Shown piece after piece: positions 6,293 through 56,439 of a stretch of 64,000 nucleotides of DNA. The position numbers and the translations under genes were made by a program. Location: the NCBI RefSeq assembly GCF_964213995.1, contig NW_027590185.1:62001-126000 (forward strand), given 5' to 3'. This stretch comes from Mustelus asterias. Lineage: Eukaryota. The notes beneath the pieces are model-generated. The model was given only the letters and a program-made list of their open reading frames with translations, did not search any database and had not been told where the DNA came from. The number at the start of each line of letters is the position of its first letter. The first letter of the stretch is position 1.

Positions 6293-7606
6293 GCCACAGT
6301 CAGAGCACCGGAAAGGTCACTAATGGGTGTGACTGCCATGGTGTCTCAGCAGCTTGGGTGAACAAGTGAATCCTTTCCCACACACTGAGCAGGTGAATGG
6401 TCTCAGTTTGGAAACTAAGGGAAAATAAAATTTCAGGCAGAAGCTTCCAATCTGGTAGGTTTTATGAGAAATCGCTGAAAGTGAGTGGGAATTATCAGGG
6501 TCTCTCCCCAGTGTGAATTCCCTGATGTTTCAGTAGGTCAGATGATGTTCTAAACCTCTTTGCACAGTGAGAGCGCCTGACATTTCAGTCATCCTCAGTG
6601 TGAATGCGCTGGTCGAACCTCAGGTAGGCTCAGGTTTTAAAGCAGCTCCCACAGTCAGAGCATTGAACAGGTTTCTTATTGGGGGAGGTGCCTCAGTATT
6701 CCAGCAGACTGGATGATTGACTGAGTCACTTCCCACACACACATCAGATGAATGGCCTTTCCCCAGTGTGTAATCCTTTGTGTCTCAGCAGACTAGATAA
6801 TTGAGTGAATCCCTTCCCACACTCGGAGCAGATGAATGGCCTCGGCCCAGTGTGAATGGGTTGGTGTGTCAGCGGGAGGGATGAGTGAGTGAATCCCTTC
6901 CCACACTCTGAGCAGGGGAACAGCCCCTCAACCGTGTGAAATCGCTGGTGGTTCTGCAGGGTAGATGACTGAGTGAATCCCTTTCCACACACACAACAGG
7001 TGAATGGTCTCTCCCCATTGTGAACCCGCTGGTGTGTCAGCAGGGCAGACGAATCGCTGAATTTCTTCCCACACTCAGAGCAGGTGAATGGCCTCTCCCT
7101 GATGTGAAGTCGCTGGTGATTCCTCAGGGTGGATGAATCACGAAATCCCCTTCCAAACTCAGAGCAGGTGAACGGTGTCTCCACAGTGTGGCTGCATCGA
7201 AGGGTTTCCAGCTTCGAGGGACAATTGAATCCCTTCCCACAGTCCCTACATTTCCATGGTCTGAGTGTCTTTGTACATCTCCAGGTTCAGATGAAGGTTT
7301 GACCCCACAGATGACACATACATGGTCTCTCTCTTCACTGTGAATCCTTCAATCTTTTCCAGGCTGTGTAACTGGTTAAAGCTCTTTCCACAGTCAGTTC
7401 ACTGGAATACTCTCACTCGAGTGTCTGTGTCTCAGTGATTTTCCAGTCACACTGATGTTTAAACAGTTTGAAGGGACAGACAAACATTTTCCATTCTAGT
7501 TTCAAATGCCGATGGTATTCAGATCCTGAATAATTGGGTGACTCTGTCAGATCCTAACGTCATGTTTGTTGAGATTTGTGTCTGTAAATTCTCCCCTTCT
7601 AATAGC
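6293..7606 (-). pseudogene. C2H2 ZNF pseudogene (locus Z1), paralog of Z9
   Basis: ORF 6744..7184 holds ~5 fingers; finger-like sequence continues both ways with in-frame stops, lost Cys/His and indels; acceptor tttcacag|g at 7606; array cut by the LTR at 6292. Confidence 0.85.
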
Positions 7607-9499: not shown

Positions 9500-10060
9500 C
9501 CCACTCCCTCAGCTGGCAGCCCAGCACGCAGGCGCAGAGAGCGCTGCTGAGCCGAGCTGTCCGGAGCAGGCGCAGAGAGCGCTGCTGAGCCGAGCTGTCC
9601 GGAGCAGGCGCAGAGAGCGCTGCTGAGCCGAGCTGTCCGGAGCAGGCGCAGAGAGCGCTGCTGAGCCGAGCTGTCCGGAGCAGGCGCAGAGAGCGCTGCT
9701 GAGCCGAGCTGTCCGGAGCAGGCGCAGTGCGGCTGCCGCCAGCGGTCGCTCTCGATCTCTTTTTGGAGCAGCAGCCGCCGTAGAGAGAGGGGGGAGGGGG
9801 AGATCACCGAGCGGCTTCTCGCTCTGGCCGGAGCCGCCAGCCGGTTGCCTGGAAACCTTGGCTCGAGGAGATGGCAGGGGGCGGGGGAATCAATGGGAGG
9901 GGGCGGGGCTCCCATGTCTGCGCGCCCGGGCCTGCGCACTGGAACTCCAGGACGTCACATCGGTACAGACTTATTCCTATTGGCTAATTCAGGCTAGGTT
10001 CCATTGTGACGTCACAATGCGGAAGTTGGCCAACGAGGTTCAGAGTGAAACTCCCGCTTC
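9500..10060. promoter_or_regulatory. CpG-rich bidirectional promoter of Z1(-)/Z2(+)
   Basis: High CpG density; NRF1-like gcctgcgc, ATTGG, 18-bp palindrome cattgtgacgtcacaatg (10002-10019, CRE core), ETS gcggaagt; candidate donor cag|gtatct at 10232. Confidence 0.7.
9528..9727 (+). repeat. 38-bp GC-rich tandem repeat, 5 identical units plus 10 bp
   Basis: Unit gcaggcgcagagagcgctgctgagccgagctgtccgga starts at 9528, 9566, 9604, 9642, 9680, partial at 9718. Confidence 0.97.
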
Positions 10061-11119
10061 TCGACAACATCTGGGAGGAAATCAATGTTTCCCCCTTTCC
10101 ATTTCTTTTCTCATTCTGGGAGAAATTGGGGACTTGCAGCAACTGAAGGGAAAGGAAGTGAATCCAGGGAGGCTGCAGACTCTGAAAACGTTACAGACGA
10201 ACATCGGAATTAGGAGCAAGACTAGGCCCAGGTATCTTTTTCTCTCTCAAAGACATTGACATCCTTTAGCTCCCTCACTTTGACACGTTTATATAGCTGG
10301 CGAATAGGATGGCCTCTTACCCAATGTTCATAATTCAAGGGGGAGTTTTCTCAGGAGAGGGCTAACATTTTAATGAACAGTAAATTTGTATGGGAGAGAG
10401 ATATGTTTAATGTAGTTACATGGTATATACTATGTTATTTACGATTCCCTATTTCTTGTCTTAAAATATATAGCAGTGTATCAACATTATCTATTTTCAG
10501 TGATGGAAACATTACAACATAGATTAGGCAACTCAGATCCATGCCAACTCTCTGTGGAGTAATTCAGTCAGTCCCATTCCCTCTCTATATCCCCATTCCC
10601 CTGTGTTTCATGTCACAATGGAATGGATGAGAGTTCCAAAGGAGCTGAGACTGGAGTAGAGTTGATCAATGGCACTGAGGTGGAAATAGGCGGTCTTGAT
10701 GATGATGTGGCTGGAAGCTCAACTTGGGGTGAAATATTTTACCATGGTTGTAAACAGTTTGCTCCAGCCTCAGACAGTTGCCAGGAAGAAGGAGAGAGTT
10801 GCTGGCGAGGGAGTGAGTTTGTAGTGGGGACTGAAGACAATGGGTTCAGTCTTCCCAGTGTTTATATGAAAGAAATTTCTGTTCTTTTAGTACTGGATGT
10901 CAGATAAGTCAGGATGGTGTGTGAGTTGGAGAGGAACTTGAAGGTGATGGTGTTCCCATCTATTTGCTACCCTGGTCCTTCTAGGTGGGTGGAGGTTGAG
11001 GGTTTGGGAAACTTTCTGTTAAAGTTCCAATTGAGTTGTCAATGTACAAAATCCCTCTCCTTCACCCTGACCTCTCCTACTTCTCTCTGTCTTCTCTCTG
11101 TGTCCAGAGTCTTGTGTCC

Positions 11120-24201: not shown

Positions 24202-25182
24202 CTGGAGAAACCATGGAAATGTGGGGATTGTGGAAAGGGTTACAGTTACCCTTCTGAACTGGAAATGCATCGACGCGCTCACACTGGGGAGAGGCCGTTC
24301 ACCTGCTCCACCTGTGGGAAGGGATTCACTCAGTCATCCAGCCTGCTGACACACCAGTATGTTCACACTGATCAGACACCTTTCAAATGTTCTGACTGTG
24401 AGAAAACATTTAAAAGCAAAAAGTATCTGCTGAGGCACCAACACATTCACAGTGAGGAGAAGCCGTTCACCTGCCCCTTGTGTGGGAAGCGATTCACTGC
24501 TACATCCAACCTGCAGAAACACCAGCGAGTTCACACTGACAAGAGACCGTTTAAATGTCCGGACTGCGGGAAGTGCTTCAAAACCTCCGGTGAAGTGACG
24601 TGTCATCAACGTGTTCACACTGACGAGAGACCATTTAGATGTTCTCACTGTGGGACTGGGTTCAGACGATCATCTGAACTCACTATACACCAGCGAATTC
24701 ACACTGGAGAGAGACCATACACCTGCTCTGTGTGTGAGAAGAACTTCATTCAATCATACCACCTGCTGAAACACCAGCAAATTCACATCAATGTAAAACC
24801 TTTTAAATGTTTTGACTGTGAGCAGAGCTTCAAAAGCAGCAAAAGTCTCGTGATGCACCAGCGAGTTCACACTGGGGAGAGACCGTTCACCTGCTCTGTG
24901 TGTGGGAAGGGATTCACTCAGTCATACAACCTGTTGAAACATCAGCGGATTCACTCTAATATAAAACATTATAAATATTTTGATTCTGAACAGAACATTA
25001 AAAGTAGCAATGATCTAATGATACCCCAGCAAGTTCACACTGGAGAGAGACTGTTCACCTGTTCCGAGTGTGGGAATGTATTCACTGACTTACAGCAAAT
25101 GCTCAGACACCAGCAACTTCATGAGTGTCTGCAGGGGTTGGATTCAACTGCTTTTGCTGCTGTTAATCACATTGAGGACTGA
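24202..25182 (+). CDS. C2H2 zinc-finger protein (Z5), 10 intact + 1 degenerate finger; start codon uncertain (CTG at the family ATG position)
   Basis: ggcaccCTGgag at 24202 where paralogs have ggcaccATGgag; first Met lies inside finger 1; C-terminus extends through the usual stop (HECLQGLDSTAFAAVNHIED*). Confidence 0.72.
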   Translation: MEKPWKCGDCGKGYSYPSELEMHRRAHTGERPFTCSTCGKGFTQSSSLLTHQYVHTDQTPFKCSDCEKTFKSKKYLLRHQHIHSEEKPFTCPLCGKRFTATSNLQKHQRVHTDKRPFKCPDCGKCFKTSGEVTCHQRVHTDERPFRCSHCGTGFRRSSELTIHQRIHTGERPYTCSVCEKNFIQSYHLLKHQQIHINVKPFKCFDCEQSFKSSKSLVMHQRVHTGERPFTCSVCGKGFTQSYNLLKHQRIHSNIKHYKYFDSEQNIKSSNDLMIPQQVHTGERLFTCSECGNVFTDLQQMLRHQQLHECLQGLDSTAFAAVNHIED

Positions 25183-30488: not shown

Positions 30489-31602
30489 GGGTGAGAGGGA
30501 GAGGAGTTCCAGACAGGAAAGTCAGAACAAACATCATGTCAAAATCTGAGAGTCACTCGATTCATCAGGAGCTGAATATCATTGATCTTTGAATGTGGAA
30601 GGAAAAATGTTTGTCTCTTCTGTCTGTGGGAAAAGATTTCATAAATCTGTGAGACTGGGAAAGCACCGAGCCCCACACACACCCGAGGGAGAGTGTTCCA
30701 GTGCACTGAGTGTGGAAAGAGCTTTAAACAGTTACACAGCCTGAAACTACATCACATTCACAGAGGGAAGAAACTATACAACATGTGTGTGTGGACGAGG
30801 ATTTAACTGATCATCCAACCTGGAGAGACATGATGACACCGACACCACAGAGAAACCGTGGATATGTGGGGACTGTGGGAAAGCATTCACTTGCCCATCC
30901 AAACTGGAAACACATCGACGCACCCACACTGGGGAGAGACCCTTCACCTGCTCCATGTGTGGGAAGGATTTCACTCAGTCATCCAACCTAGCATTACATC
31001 AGCGTGTTCACACTGGAGGGGCCGTTCAGCTGCTCTGTGTGTGGTAAAAGGTTTATTCAGTCATACAATCTAGCGTTACACCAGCGGGTTCACACTGGGG
31101 AGAGGCCATTCACCTGCTCCGTGTATGGGAAGGGATTCATTAATTCCTCTAACCTAGTGGCACACCAGCGAGTTCACTCCGGGGAGAAACCATTCAGCTG
31201 CACTGACTGTGGAATGAGCTTTAGGCTTTCATCCACCTGCTGAAATACCAGCGAGTTCACACTGAGGAGAGGCCATTCAGCTGCACTGACTGTGGAAAGA
31301 GTTTCAGACACTCAGGCAGTCTCACTGTACACCAGCGAGCTCACACTGGGGAGAGGCCATTCACCTGCTCCGAGTGTGGGAAGGGATTCACTGATTCATG
31401 TCAACTGCTGAGACATGAACGAGTTCACACCGGGGAGAGGCCGTTCACCTGCTCCGAGTGTGGGAAGGGATTCATTGATTCATCTCAGCTGCTGAAACAC
31501 CAGCGAGTTCACACCGAGGAGAGGCCATTCACCTGCTCCGAGTGTGGGAAGGGATTAACTGATTCATCTCAGCTGCTGAAACACCAGCGAGTTCACAAGT
31601 GA
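30489..31602 (+). pseudogene. C2H2 ZNF pseudogene (Z6)
   Basis: No ATG at the family start (accACAgag); 2-nt deletion ~31017 leading to TAA; further shift ~31232; last three fingers are near-identical 84-bp copies; terminal HK*. Confidence 0.82.
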
Positions 31603-47656: not shown

Positions 47657-49246
47657 TGTTAAGATATACAGTATGCTTTACATTGTAATATTCTAATTGG
47701 GATATTATAGTGATACATTTTCATTTCTTCCAGGGAATATGTTGTGAAGATCTAGTTTAATAATTCATGATTTTCAGAAGTAAATTAGTTTTGGATTTTT
47801 TTTTAAAAATGTAACAACTGGAAAACCTGGGTTGAGAATCTGACAAAAACACCCTGAGGGAATCCGCAGTCACAAGGTGTGGCCCATGTTGGTTTGAGAA
47901 GTCAAAGCGAGAAGGGTAAGAACAAGTGTAACACGGCAGCTGGGCTCTTTTAGCTGGAGACATTGGGTCTGACAGTTTTTCTCCTGTCTTTGTTCGAGAG
48001 GGGAATTCTTCACGCAGACCTCAGGAAAAAAGGTTTGGTTCTGAAACTAAAAGTTAATTAATTTAAACATCTTTTGGACATCCCAACTGGTCTGTTACCA
48101 TGAGGATAAGTGATTCAGGGTGGTCTTGGTTGGAATTCGGGGTGTTTTTCACAGAAAGCAGGGAGTCTGCAGTTAGCTTGGGAGCTGTGGGAGCGGGAGC
48201 TGTGAACCAGCTGTGGGAGTGGGAGCTGTGAACCAGCTGTGGGACCGGGAGCTGTGAACCAGCTGTGGGAGCGGGAGCTGTGAACCAGCTGTGGGAGCGG
48301 GAGCTGTGAACCAGCTGTGGGACCGGGAGCTGTGAACCAGCTGTCGGAGTGGGAGCTGTGAACCAGCTGTGGGAGCGGGAGCTGTGAACCAGCTGTGGGA
48401 GCGGGAGCTGTGAACCAGCTGTGAGACCGGGAGCTGTGAACCAGCTGTGGGACCGGGAGCTGTGAACCAGCTGTGGGACCGGGAGCTGTGAACCAGCTGT
48501 GGGACCGGGAGCTGTGAACCAGCTGTGGGACCGGGAGCTGTGAACCAGCTGTGGGACCGGGAGCTGTGAACCAGCTGTGGGACCGGGAGCTGTGAACCAG
48601 CTGTGGGACCGGGAGCTGTGAACCAGCTGTGGGAGCGGGAGCTGTGAACCAGCTGTGAGACCAGAAGCCGAGGAGGTCATTAGGAACCATGGGTGTTCCC
48701 AATGTTTAAATCCCTCAGCAAGAAGGCAGTGAAGTCCATGCTTGGATTGAGGAGTCCATGTTTTGAGTCAATTTTGAAATCTCAAAGGAAAGTTGGAGAG
48801 TTGTTTAGCCGAAAGCTAATAGAAGGATCCTCATGAAATCTTGGAGTCTGGAGAATCGCTGGATTACTGAGGAGAATTAAAGTGAATGCTGGGAGCTTTG
48901 ACATACCTTTGGGATTTGTCCCAGGAACAGAAGTGAATGCACATTCAAGATATTAAGTATAAGGGCATTCTTGTCGAGGAGTAAGGGTTTAAAAAGTACA
49001 AAAACTGAAAAATGCTGCAAAATCTCAGCAGGTCTGGCAGCATCTGTAGAGAGTGAAAACAGAGTTCATGTTTTGAGTCAGAACTGAGTTTACAGAATAA
49101 ATCTTTACAAAATATAATTCATCGAGCTGGTTTTTAATATTCTGTTTATATTCAGTGAAGTTTGATTTTGTTTAAAAACCTGGAATCTTGTGATGGGTGT
49201 TTGGATTTCTCACTGAACGTTAATGTTCTCGACCCGAATTATAACA
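47657..49246. mobile_element. Solo LTR candidate containing a 26-bp minisatellite
   Basis: TGTTAAG...TATAACA termini; homologous to 4291-5483. Confidence 0.62.
48195..48662 (+). repeat. 26-bp minisatellite (gggagctgtgaaccagctgtgggacc), 18 units
   Basis: 468 bp / 26; single unit in copy A at ~4948-4972. Confidence 0.96.
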
Positions 49247-50226: not shown

Positions 50227-50279
50227 CCCGCAGGCAGAGTATTTAAAAGGTCTCTAATCGGTGTGACTGCCATAATGTC

Positions 50280-51473
50280 TCAGCAGGTTGGATGACTCAG
50301 TGAATCCTTTCCTACACTCAGAGCAGGTGAACAGCCTCTCTCCTCCGTGTGAACTTGCTTGTGTTTCCGCAGGCTGGAAGGATCAGCAAATCCCTTCCCA
50401 CATTCAGAGCAGGTGAAAGGCTTCTCCCCGGTGTGAACTCGACGGTGTGTCCGCAGACTGGACGACTCAGTGAATCCTTTCCCACACACACAGCAGATGA
50501 ATGGCCTCTCCCCGGTGTGAACTCGCCGGTGTTTCCAGAGGCTGGAGGAATCAGTGAATCCCTTCCCACACTCAGTGCAACTGAACGGTCTCTCTCCAGA
50601 GTGAATTCGCTGGTGTGTCAGCAGACTAGTGGACCTAGTAAATCCCTTCCCACACACAGAGCAGGGGAATGGCCTCTCTCCAGTGTGAACTGCTTGATGT
50701 CGCAGCAAGGTTGATAACTGAGTGAATCCCTTCCCACACACGGAGCAGGTGAATGACCTCTCCCCAGTGTGAACTGCCTGGTGGTTCTGCAGGGTAGATG
50801 ATGCACTGAATCCCTTCCCACACACGGTGCAGGTGAACGGCCTCTCCCCGGTGTGGACTCGCTGATGTATCAGCAGGTGAGATGACCGAGTGAATCCCCT
50901 CCCACAGTCAGAGCAGGTGTATGGCCTCTGCCCGGTGTGAACTCTCTGGTGCTTCTGCAGAGCAGAGGAATCACTGAATCCCTTCCCACACTCTGAGCAG
51001 CTGAACAGCTTCTCCCTGGCGTGTATTCGCTGGTGTCTCCGCAGGTTGGATGAAAGAGTGAATCCCTTCCCACACACTGAGCAAGCAAATGACCTCTCCC
51101 CAGTGTGAACTCGCTTGTGTCTCCGGAGGCTGGATGAATCCCCGAACCTCTTCCCACACTCAATGCAGGTGAAAGGCCTCTCCCCCGTGTGAATGCGTCC
51201 GTGTGTCAGAAGACGGGATGAATCAGTGAAACCCTTCCCACATTCAGAGCAGGTGAATGGCCTCTCCCCAGTGTGAATTTTCTGATGTGTCAGCAGGTTG
51301 GATAACTGAGAGAATCCCTTCCCACAATCAGGGCAGGTGAATGGCTTCTCCCCAGTGTGACTGCGTCGATGAATCTCCAGCTCACACGGTGCTTTGAATC
51401 TTTTTCCACAGTCCCCACATTTCCACTGTTTCTCCCTGATGCGGGAGGCCGCCTGTCCCTCCAGGTTTGACAA
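50280..51473 (-). CDS. C2H2 zinc-finger ORF (Z9), 13 intact fingers, no in-frame ATG
   Basis: Open for 397 codons with all 13 fingers intact; no Met in the ORF; bounded by in-frame TGA at 51476-51474; 2-nt slip near 50340 cuts off a 14th finger. Confidence 0.62.
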
Positions 51474-52711
51474 TCAGATGAAGCCTCGTCCTCACTGAGA
51501 ACAGATGTACAGTCCCTCTCAATGTAAATGGGGCAATGCTTTTCAGGCTGTGTAACCTGAACACACACTCAGGTTTGTACTTCTCAGTGCTTTTCCAGTC
51601 ACACTAATGTTCAATCTTTTTCCACAGACAGAAACAAACCCAAACAATTCTCCTTCTCGAGTCAAAGGCCAATGATATTCACGTTGTGATTAATCGAGTG
51701 ACTGTCAGATCTGAACGTAATGTTTTGTTTTGATATTTCTGTTCTGTAAATCCTCCCCTTCTAATATCCTGTGAAAGAAGTTTACAAAAGTGAACACCAT
51801 GCACATAGAAAAGAAATTCAGAATGGACAATTCTCGATTCAATGAAACTATTTTCTATTCTTTTATTCCTGAAAAGTTGTAAATTTCTGTCCCACACATT
51901 CTGCACCGAATCTTCACCCTCCCGATTCTGCTGAAGCTGCTGGTTCATGCTCCAGGACACACAGACCTGAGAATCTTCAGGCAAGCTGTTCACCGATATA
52001 TCCCTTATATTCATATAGAACTGGACTATCATTTGTGTAAAAGTGCTATATTACTTTATTAGAGAGAGGTCGGGAATATGTGTAGAAGGTTATTTTGGAC
52101 TTCAAGTAGTCATAAACTGGAATTCACCCCACATGCGGATGGTGAAAGCAGAGAGAACCCATGATTTCAAATGATGTTGGTCATTCAAAAGAAATAAATG
52201 TAGGACAGTGATACAGAGGGGGAATGGGACCCACTGGATTGTTCTATGGAGAGTTGACATGGACTCGAGTTGCCAAATGGACTCTTTTTGTGCTGCAATG
52301 TCTCACTGACTGGAAATATATAACATAACTATATTACTATATTCCAAGAATAGAAATAAAAAATAAATACTTTACTGCAGCACCAAAAATAATACATCTA
52401 ACATGTACAATAACAAAACTAGAAACACCTCTGTTATGATCTCCATAGAGACTGATAATCTTCAAATAAACAATTCCCAGACAATCCCAATGGAATAAAC
52501 CAAAGAATAAGGTTTCATTAATTTCATACTTTTACTGCAATAACCAAACTAAAATCAACATAAATGAAGCATGCATTCACAGACAATGGTACTTGAACAG
52601 ACAGGATAAATTTGACTTTAAATAGTTCAGACAATAACAACAGGTTCCACAAAATCACAAAGATTTACAAATATTTACAAGCATCACAAACCAGCCTCCC
52701 ATCCATTGACT

Positions 52712-53400
52712 CACGGTAGCACAGTGGTTAGCACTGCTGCTTCACAGCTCCAGGGACCTAGGTTCGATTCCCAGCTTGGGTCACTGTCTGTGTGGAGTTT
52801 GCACATTCTCCTCGTGTCTGCGTGGGTTTCCTCCGGGTGCTCCGGTTTCCTCCCACAGTCTAAAGATGTGCGGGTTAGATTGATTGGCCATGCTAAAATT
52901 GCCCCTTAGTGTCCTGGGATGCGTAGATTAGAGGGATTAGTGGGTAAAATATGTAGGGATATGGGGGTAGGGCCTGGGTGGGATTGTGGTCGGTGCAGAC
53001 TCGATGGGCCGAATGGCCTCTTTCTGTGCTGTCGGGTTTCTATGACTCTGATTACACTTCTCGCTGCCTTGGCAAAGCAGCCAGCATAATTAAGAACCCC
53101 ACGCACCCCGGACATTCTCTCCTCCACCTTCTTCCATAGGGAAAAAGATACAAAAGTCTGAGGTCACGTACCAACCGACACAAGAACAGCTTTGTCCCTG
53201 CTGCTGTCAGACTTTTGAATGGACCTACCTTGCATGAAGTTGATCTTTCTCTACCCTAGCTATAACTGTAACACTACATTCTGCACTCTCTTGTTTCCTT
53301 CTCTATGAACGGTATGCTTTGTCTGGATAACGTGCAAAAAACAATACTTTTCACTGTATGTTAATACATGTGACAATAATAAATCAAATAAAATCAAATC
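52712..53400 (+). mobile_element. HE1 SINE (52712-53047) followed by a Rex1/Babar 3' end
   Basis: Full HE1 body; RCLGKAASIIKNPTHPGH; (aaatc)n tail; absent from copy A. Confidence 0.85.
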
Positions 53401-53799
53401 AAACATTTCCCCCCTCCACATATTTGGCTCTAATTCTAGTTACATAGTCCCACAACTCCCTAAATTTCCCAGGTATAGGTTCAGCTCCTTTCCCTTTACA
53501 GGAGGTTCGACTGGACTCTTTCCCTACAGCCCATTTCCACAGGCAGCCCCAGGAGTCACAGCCTCTGGATCTCTCACTGGTAGATTCTCCCAATCAGCCT
53601 TTTTGTTCTCCTTTTTCCAGCTGCTCAGACTCCCTCCCCATCTCCCACTCACAGCTTCACTGTTCATTGAACTCTTCCCTTCCCTCCTGAACACCTCTCA
53701 CACCCTGCCTGTTCTTTATCTGCAACACAAACAAACTGTTTTACTCACAGATGTGGGACACAGGAAGAAGGTTCAGTCTGTGTGAAGCTCAACCTCCTA

Positions 53800-54240
53800 T
53801 GTCACAAAGCCCACCCACTGATTGGCTGGAGTACAAGAGTCCTTCCGGTCTGCCAGGGCTCCCGATTGGCCAGACCTCGGAGGAGGGGCATCAATGGATC
53901 TCTAGCCGGGGGGAGGGGGTGGAGAGACGACAGCTTCCGAGCCTGCGCACAGGACGTCACCGTGGAGCAGATTGATTCCTATTGGCTGCTTCAGGCAGGG
54001 CTCCATTGTGACGTCACAACGCGGAAGTTGGCCAACAAGCTTCAGAGTGAAACTTCCTCCTCTGGGCCAACATCTGGGAGGAAATCAATGTTTCCCCCTT
54101 TCCATTTCTTTTCTCATTCTGGGGGAAATTGGGGACTTGCAGCAACTGAAGGGAAAGGAAGTGAATCCAGGGAGGCTGCAGACTCTGGAAAGGTTACAGA
54201 CGGACACCAGAATTAGGAGCAGGACTAGGCCCAGGTATCT
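53800..54240. promoter_or_regulatory. Bidirectional promoter/first exon of Z9(-)/Z10(+)
   Basis: Three ATTGG boxes, gcctgcgc, palindrome ttgtgacgtcacaa (54006-54019), gcggaagt; donor cag|gtatct at 54235; paralog of 9930-10235. Confidence 0.7.
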
Positions 54241-54539
54241 TTTTCTTTCTCTCTCAAAGACATTGACAACCTTTAACTCCCTAAGTTTGACAGATTTATT
54301 TATCTGGATAATAGGATAGCTCTTACCCAATGTTCACAATTAAAGGGGGAGTTTCCCAGGAGAGGGCTAATATTTAAATGAACAGTAAATTAGTATGGGA
54401 CAGAGATATGTTTAACGTAGTTATATGTTATATACTATGTTATTTATGATTCCCTATTTCTTGTCTTGGAATATATAGCACTTTGTCAATGTTACCTATT
54501 TGATTCAATTTATTATTGTCCCTTGTCCAAAAATGTGCG

Positions 54540-54820
54540 GATAAAAGCAAATTACTGCAGATGCTGGAATCTGAAACCAAAAGAGAAAATGCTGGAAAAT
54601 CTCAGCAGGTCTGGCAGCATCTGTAAGGAGAGAAAAGAGCTGACGGTTCGAGTCCAGATGACCCTTTGTCAAAGCTAAAAGGCATAGAAAGTGGGAGATA
54701 TTTATGCTGCAGGGTGAGGGACTGAAAGATGAGTCATAGCCACAGAAACCAGGGGAAAAGGCTGCTAATGGCAGTCCATAGAGAGAATAAAGGGTGTGAA
54801 TGGCCTAATGGCAGAGAAGC
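54540..54820 (-). mobile_element. Penelope-like element fragment
   Basis: aaatgctggaaaatctcagcaggtctggcagcatctgt...gagtccagatgaccctttgtcaaa; insertion absent from copy A. Confidence 0.6.
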
Positions 54821-55854
54821 TGAAAAGTATTGTTTTTTGCGTACTATACAGGCAAAGCATACTGTACATAGAAAAGGAAAGGAGAGGCAGAGTATGTAGT
54901 GTTACAGTCATATATATTTTCAGTGATGCAAACATTACAGCATGGAAAGAATCCATTTGGCAACTCAAATCCATGGCAACTCTCTGTAGAGCAATTCAGT
55001 CAGTTCCATTCTCCCTCTATATCCTCATTCTCCTGAGTTTCATGTCACAAATAGGCAGTCTTGATGATGATATGTGGCTGGAAGCTCATCTTGGGGTGAA
55101 ATATTTCATCCCAAGACAGTTGCTAGGAAGAGGGGTAGATTTGCTGGTGAGTGAGTGGAATTTGTAGTGGGAACTGAATTCAATGGGTTCAGTCTTCCCA
55201 GTATTTATATGGAAAAAATTTCTGTTCTTTTAGTACTGGATGTCAGACAAGCCAGAATGGTGTGTGAGTTAGAAGCGAACTTGGAGGTGATGGTGTTCAC
55301 ATCTACCTGCTACCTTGGTCCTTACAGGTGATGGAGATTGAGAGTTTGGGAGATTCTGTAAAAGTTCCCATCGAGTTGTAGATGTTTGAAATCCTTCTTC
55401 TTCACCACTGCCTCTCCTACTTCTCTCTGTCACCTCACACAGTGCCCAGATTCTTGTGTAGATCCAGACCAGGTGGCACATACCCTTTCCTGAAGGACAT
55501 TAGTGAATCAGTTGGGTTTTTATGACAATTCAGCAGCTTTCATGATTCATTCAGCTCAATTTCACAACTTGCCTTTGTGTTTTTGTGGGTTCTCTCTCAC
55601 TCCCTTTTTTCTGTTTTAAATCAGTTTGACAGGGTGTTAGAAGAGGAGGATTTGCAGTGGGGAAACAAAAACCAAACGTGATATCGGAACCTGATGGAGT
55701 CGGCCAAGTTATTGTAACCTGAATATCATTGTGTTTTGAATATAGAAGAAAACAGCACCATTCGCAGTGGAAACTGTACACGTGTTCTGTGTGTGGACAA
55801 GACTTCAACCAATCATCCAGCCTTTCGGAACATAATTGCAGTCACAACAAGGAG

Positions 55855-56439
55855 ATGGCATGGAAATGTGAGGACTGTGGGAAGGGATTCAAGTACCCAT
55901 CGCAGCTAGAAACTCATCGACGCAGTCACACTGGGGAGAGGCCATTCACCTGCTCCCGATGCGGGAGGGGATTCATTCAGTCATCCAGCTTGCGTATACA
56001 CCAAAGGATTCACACTGAGGAGAGACCATTCAGCTGCTGTGTGTGCGGGAAGGGATTCAATCAGTCATTCAACCTAGCATCACACAAGCGAGTTCACACT
56101 GGGGAGAGGCCGTTCACTTGCTCCCAGTGTGGGAAGAAATTCAGTCAGTCAGCCAACCTAGCAAAACACCGGCGAATTCACACTGAGGCCAGACCATTCA
56201 CCTGCTCTGTGTGTGGGAAGAAATTCAAGGAGTCATCCAACCTAGCAAAACACCAGCGAGTTCACACTGGGGAGAGGCCATTCGTCTGTTCCCAGTGTGG
56301 GAAGGGATTTACTCACTCAGCCAATCTGCTGAGACACCAGCGAGTTCACACTGGGGAGAAGCCATTCATCTGCTGTATGTGTGGGAAGGGATTCAGTCAG
56401 TCATCCACTCTGCTGACACATCAGCGAATTCATAAGTAA
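55855..56439 (+). CDS. C2H2 zinc-finger protein (Z10), 7 fingers from a newly gained ATG; paralog of Z2
   Basis: Z2 start is ATA here (55742) and frameshifted; first in-frame ATG is gagATGg at 55855 (MAWKCEDC); ends HK*. Confidence 0.78.

Follow-up and report, generated by a model that had tools for sequence, protein, structure and literature searches.

We analysed a 64,000-nt window of the Mustelus asterias genome (contig NW_027590185.1 of assembly GCF_964213995.1, positions 62,001 to 126,000). The longest zinc-finger array of this window lies in a stop-to-stop open reading frame of 397 amino acids on the minus strand (51473..50280, the 397 codons spanning 51473-50283) that contains no methionine. 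All cysteines and histidines of its 13 C-x2-C-x12-H-x3-H fingers are retained in a single frame, between a 12-aa lead and a 22-aa tail. Pfam assigns 13 PF00096 and 12 PF13465 stretches to the gene, and both the fingers and their TGEKP-like linkers are those of tandem Kruppel-type C2H2 proteins. The original prediction had described 13 intact fingers without an ATG, two upstream in-frame TGAs and an AGG in place of the family start codon, all of which we recovered; it had overlooked a 14th finger, which is out of frame (Table 1). The 2-nt shift responsible is common to all 22 genomic copies with the AGG, hereafter the AGG subfamily, and to an ATG-bearing sister family.

Table 1. Features of the AUG-less zinc-finger gene and its surroundings (window positions)
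Feature	Position	Strand	Remarks
AGG replacing the family ATG	51437-51435	-	from comparison with paralogs
In-frame TGAs closing the frame upstream	51494-51492, 51476-51474	-	
Candidate start CTG	51464-51462	-	fourth codon past the TGA; A at -4, -3 and +5, G at +4
13 tandem C2H2 fingers	50349..51419	-	1-6 private to the AGG subfamily, later ones common to the ATG-bearing sister
Frameshifted 22-aa non-finger tail and stop	50280..50348	-	
Intact 14th finger, out of frame	50263..50325	-	preceded by a GA run (near 50340) that has gained 2 nt
Out-of-frame 12-codon ORF at the first AUG of exon 2	51382..51420	-	ATG is part of the family WKC motif
Untranslated fossil-finger leader (5' part of exon 2)	51474..51769	-	about 300 nt, ATG-free in the window copy
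Predicted intron	51770..53748	-	about 2 kb; ends at the family acceptor 51770/51769
Likely non-coding exon 1	53749..53800	-	ends at the family donor; predicted 5' end
Sole candidate exon with ATG and donor in the window copy	53653..53667	-	MNSEA, phase 0, T at -3; in 5/22 copies
Promoter-like region	53800..54060	.	head to head with Z10; putative function
Possible polyadenylation signal AATAAA	50083..50088	-	

The predicted splicing pattern follows that of the family. The donor motif of exon 1 is identical in 14 of the 22 AGG copies and in ATG-bearing paralogs. For the acceptor, we compared the stretch 51250-52700 (the exon-1 junction lies outside it) with contigs from other organisms; in two runs tentatively classed as RNA, the contigs break off at 51768 and 51770, leaving 20 and 27 letters, and DNA runs continue past this point, a weak hint of an exon-2 splice site. 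The promoter-like region carries CCAAT motifs at 53985, 53869 and 53825, TGACGT at 54016 and 53959, and CCGGAAG at 53848. Head-to-head pairs are formed by Z9/Z10 (53500-54700) and by Z1/Z2 (9948-10496), and their promoter-side blocks are homologous (88%), the block being the Z10-facing half in the Z9/Z10 pair. Z2 resembles Z10 and Z1 resembles Z9, including the out-of-frame last finger. A tandem array of ~28-nt units lies between Z8 and Z9 (48180-48660).

At an identity of at least 90%, the genome contains 22 copies of the gene, one of which (L015) is 99.98% identical to the window copy over 5.4 kb; some of the 22 may be uncollapsed haplotypes, and 18 can be told apart in the lead and fingers 1-6. 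A genome-wide search with the middle base of the start codon left free returned AGG in 22 of 22 matches, and a sequencing error or a fresh loss, which the original prediction had asked to be checked in the bases, was rejected on these grounds. Both TGAs are likewise kept in every copy. The frame is open in 19 copies, 17 of which lack methionine altogether, and the other three copies share a single CGA-to-TGA stop. Fingers 1-6 were found solely in AGG copies and have no ATG-bearing counterpart, the next matches being ~81% alike. By contrast, nine ATG-bearing sister copies (L052-L058, L061, L062) with first fingers of their own match the 3' flank and the later fingers at ~98% identity; seven of these nine are broken late in the array.

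The loss of the ATG does not appear to be recent. AGG is found on two haplotypes of the lead that differ 14 nt away from it, and a second organism (B) has each of the two alleles of the distinguishing position, 51451; together these observations suggest that the loss predates the split of the two haplotypes. The orthologous intron DNA is ~96% alike in organisms B and C. Three protein searches returned generic zinc-finger matches and no ortholog, no public sequencing run was listed as RNA holding the AGG gene, and a pattern scan of metagenomes gave no match.

Variation among the 22 copies indicates that the array is under purifying selection. Distinct variants were counted against the majority sequence and weighted by mutation class as derived from the 3' flank; the 10% divergence of the 5' part was rejected as a neutral yardstick since it reflects a second 5' haplotype in seven copies. 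For the AGG array we obtained 51 synonymous changes (S), 50 nonsynonymous changes (N) and two stops, corresponding to an omega of about 0.38 (p 5e-7), and a recount without three misaligned changes in copy L031 was nearly identical (S52/N52/stop2). The same script returned omega values of 0.43, 0.47, 0.43 and 0.33 for four ATG-bearing subfamilies, and 1.02 (S17/N44/stop3) for the decayed Z1 family, represented by 21 copies (20 of 40 listed matches and the window copy), which differs from the AGG array (Fisher p 0.004). None of the eight indels in the AGG arrays shifts the frame, compared with 6.5 expected (P 0.0014) from the small indels of three other arrays (Z1 2, Z6 5, sister 3; long boundary artefacts left out). 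Changes of zinc-ligand codons number three against 15 expected, and two of them fall in copies that contain a stop or are missing the exon-1 donor. Such copies have omega values of 0.64 and 0.69, compared with 0.31 for the remainder (p 0.058). A codon model also rejects an omega of 1 for the whole array (IQ-TREE likelihood ratio 37.9) and for fingers 1-6 (5.8, p 0.016), a result that rests on likelihood ratios from a model weakened by recombination among copies. The array thus probably evolves like the ATG-bearing subfamilies and unlike Z1; an omega near 1 with background levels of stops and frameshifts, as expected of a pseudogene, was approached loosely only by the three-copy stop clade. Selection had been proposed earlier from the contrast between intact fingers and the decayed paralog Z1; the conclusion stands on the 22-copy variation and the calibrated Z1 control, whereas the argument itself does not support it, as a recent loss would also leave the fingers intact. 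The Z1 family (window 6329-7260; L070-L089) comprises at least 40 copies at an identity of at least 98%, evolves neutrally and has neither ATG nor CTG in frame before its fingers.

This constraint could still be a relic. Though improbable on balance, the most serious alternative to translation holds that loss of the ATG left the copies dead or decaying, their apparent constraint dating from before that event or reaching them through gene conversion by functional zinc-finger genes. The ATG-bearing sister has almost the same fingers 8-13, 13 of 63 late-finger variants of the AGG subfamily also occur there, and fingers 7-13 recombine with that family. Trees of three regions disagree. Copies therefore recombine, and variants could be older than the loss of the start or have bypassed it. 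Fingers 1-6, private to the subfamily, yield S17/N22/stop2 and an omega of 0.47 (p 0.019), but on their own do not differ from Z1 (p 0.14), and p is 0.085 once variants convertible from finger to finger are left out. A stop or the loss of the exon-1 donor affects eight of the 22 copies, and exon 1 of a ninth is interrupted (among L016-L020 and L025, five have lost the donor together with ~1.3 kb of intron, and one is the interrupted copy). The family ATG is itself under constraint, and amplification proves nothing, since the decayed Z1 also reached its high copy number. Against a relic, Z1 was exposed to similar processes and shows no constraint, although its fingers are more decayed and conversion may be rarer there. 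With variants shared with the sister removed, omega is still 0.43 (S43/N48/stop2; p 0.019 vs Z1); for singletons it is 0.51 (p 0.012), and L031, the copy that has diverged most, shows S9/N8. None of the frameshifts of the sister copies has entered an AGG copy, and the age of the loss suggested by the two lead haplotypes also speaks against this alternative. We consider the AUG-less AGG subfamily to be real and old, and probably under constraint.

If the array is translated, the start has to be sought in a short stretch. Exon 1 has no ATG open to its donor, and none of the 22 copies revealed an ATG-bearing upstream exon shared between clades, three having no ATG-plus-donor candidate at all; the near-cognate codons within the 12 codons after the TGA therefore remain. 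The CTG at 51464, put forward in the original prediction in its aacCTGg context, is the best candidate among these. Its context is unchanged in all 22 copies, and the 27 nt from it to the old start contain neither a stop nor an indel. The 10 nt around it are free of variants, in a stretch too short for statistical power. The leader is ATG-free in 15 of the 22 copies, compared with 0/33 and 3/60 at other loci, which amounts to one lineage event, and seven copies do contain upstream ATGs. The context is inherited from the family, in which CTG occupies this position at 21 of 30 loci; special family-wide conservation was not found. A stable hairpin ~15 nt downstream is helpful, though not required, for a non-AUG start. 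The segment following the CUG forms a 5-bp stem from 14 nt downstream, but folds less stably (-9.6) than in ATG-bearing paralogs (mean -11.4), and we rejected this hairpin as specific support. Many such paralogs (L037, L040-L042, L047-L050) have a start AUG that, by prediction, falls within a hairpin of ~-17 kcal/mol beginning ~16 nt after the -9 codon position. The available text of two studies ranks CUG as the best near-cognate start and AGG among the worst (PMC3105428), and describes G at +4 and A or C at -4 as favouring near-cognate starts and mattering most (PMC9082881). Frameshifting from the out-of-frame AUG was rejected, as the A-run varies among copies.

An upstream ATG exon could instead be spliced to an AG within the 12-codon lead (51459, 51453, 51436, 51432 or 51426), a route that we regard as unlikely. 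The changes from ATG to AGG and from CCG to CAG each created a new AG, pyrimidines make up eight of the 12 bases before the AG at 51436, and the window copy does have a phase-0 candidate (53667-53653). The ATG of this candidate exon is, however, present in only five of the 22 copies, the possible acceptors have further AGs just upstream, and a contig from one run tentatively classed as RNA extends unbroken from 51463 to the family acceptor, a weak hint as it comes from another organism and is 89% alike. With no ATG exon common to the clades, the unseen coding exon of the original prediction is disfavoured. Use of another near-cognate codon, or of several, is about equally unlikely: UUG (51473), AUC (51440) and a CUG inside finger 1 are all in frame after the last TGA, and multiple near-cognate starts are described for EIF4G2 and PTEN in the accessible part of PMC9082881, but UUG and AUC lack both G at +4 and a purine at -3, AUC reads CUC in two copies, and finger 1 itself shows few amino-acid changes.

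Start codons elsewhere in the family put this loss into perspective. Among 2112 canonical start sites, 2048 have ATG, and the 64 that differ (3.0%, vs 10.8% at the next codon) include 38 ACG, nine AGG with an upstream ATG and five CTG; 44 of the 64 loci were examined. The family ATG is strongly conserved, and genuine start turnover is rare. Two further lineages in which the family ATG has gone carry ATG at the CTG position: the Z6 family (window 30820-30849; L090-L109) in 16 of 21 copies, where the old start reads ACA or ACG and the new ATG lies nine codons upstream, and an ACG lineage in nine copies (among 40 non-ATG loci). The window copy of Z6 has CTG at the -9 position and is frameshifted. 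To judge from these sequences, the recurrence shows that a start at this position is usable. Such an ATG may also arise first and free the old one without a CUG stage, and L045 and L046 carry both. The idea that Z5 and Z10 mark start turnover as a regulatory feature of the family is borne out by the two lineages as regards turnover as such; any regulatory role is conjectural, and Z10 (55742-55857), whose subtype start now reads ATA, has an in-frame ATG at 55855. In Z5, the family start is CTG (24202-24204) and the first methionine is codon 21.

Two small ACG lineages without an early methionine show mostly synonymous change. They comprise L191 and L202, and L197, L199, L204 and L208, with an ACG start, CTG at -9 and no methionine before codon 133 or 187; their counts are nine S to three N by codon, and six S to four N, in few copies. 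In a third ACG lineage, which has GTG at -9, an omega of 0.86 suggests neutral change. Start-less loci without an upstream methionine are intact in 18 of 24 cases, and at least four fingers are in frame at 39 of 56 ATG-bearing loci, but we dropped intactness as evidence because recent neutral losses would be intact too.

Weighing these alternatives, we put the chance that the AGG subfamily is still translated, most likely from the CUG at 51464, at about even. The CUG would formerly have encoded a leucine of a fossil finger, with a strong context in place from the outset. In the window copy, scanning ribosomes would not encounter an AUG ahead of this CUG, and a fraction of them would initiate there, nine codons upstream of the old start, to make a 394-aa, 13-finger DNA-binding protein, presumably at low output; the rest would enter the 12-codon out-of-frame ORF. 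More tentatively, a start relay is possible, in which the AUG is lost, the protein is kept via a fossil-finger CUG or ACG, and a new AUG is sometimes fixed at the CUG, as a recurring, dosage-lowering state of multi-copy transcription factor subfamilies.

To our knowledge, few genes, all ancient, start solely at a non-AUG codon. The AGG gene resembles them in having no usable in-frame AUG, an upstream in-frame stop, a near-cognate codon in a strong context and coding constraint, weaker for fingers 1-6 alone. In the parts of PMC9082881 and PMC3105428 available to us, EIF4G2/DAP5 (GUG) and TEAD1/3/4 likewise combine a near-cognate codon in a strong context with an upstream in-frame stop, an out-of-frame AUG downstream and constraint from the near-cognate codon on. 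Those are experimentally proven cases of ancient origin, each a conserved single gene that has in-frame AUGs further downstream, whereas the AGG subfamily is young, has 22 copies that mostly lack any methionine, arose by loss of the family AUG and is a candidate proposed from sequence.

Within cartilaginous fishes, the first finger resembles that of proteins beginning MEKPWKC or MAKPWKC, and is the same as in finger-only MEKPWKC C2H2 genes (P0130, P0175, P0191). ATG-bearing finger-only paralogs in the same genome share the exon-1 donor, the TGA-containing fossil-finger leader and the single coding exon with the AGG gene, which has the donor, acceptor and leader of that family but AGG in place of the ATG before EKPWKC, a diverged lead and a mostly ATG-free leader. 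Like KRAB-ZNFs and cyprinid FiNZ-ZNFs, as far as the consulted part of PMC10547256 describes them, the shark family comprises hundreds to thousands of clustered tandem-finger genes, gains and loses fingers in 84-nt steps and includes many broken copies. The AGG gene itself was rejected as a KRAB- or FiNZ-type ZNF, as it has no N-terminal effector domain and no shared upstream coding exon; KRAB was absent among the 25 of 31 Pfam families listed for it. The literature searched, covered in part and in main texts, contained no report of AUG-less shark zinc-finger genes.

If the AGG subfamily is indeed translated, this young group of transcription factors would show how non-AUG starts originate, namely by loss of the AUG and takeover by a pre-existing CUG. 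Ancestral, intermediate and CUG-to-AUG states coexist in the genome, opening this path to reporter tests. Functional zinc-finger genes would then also be among the loci that annotation sets aside as pseudogenes.
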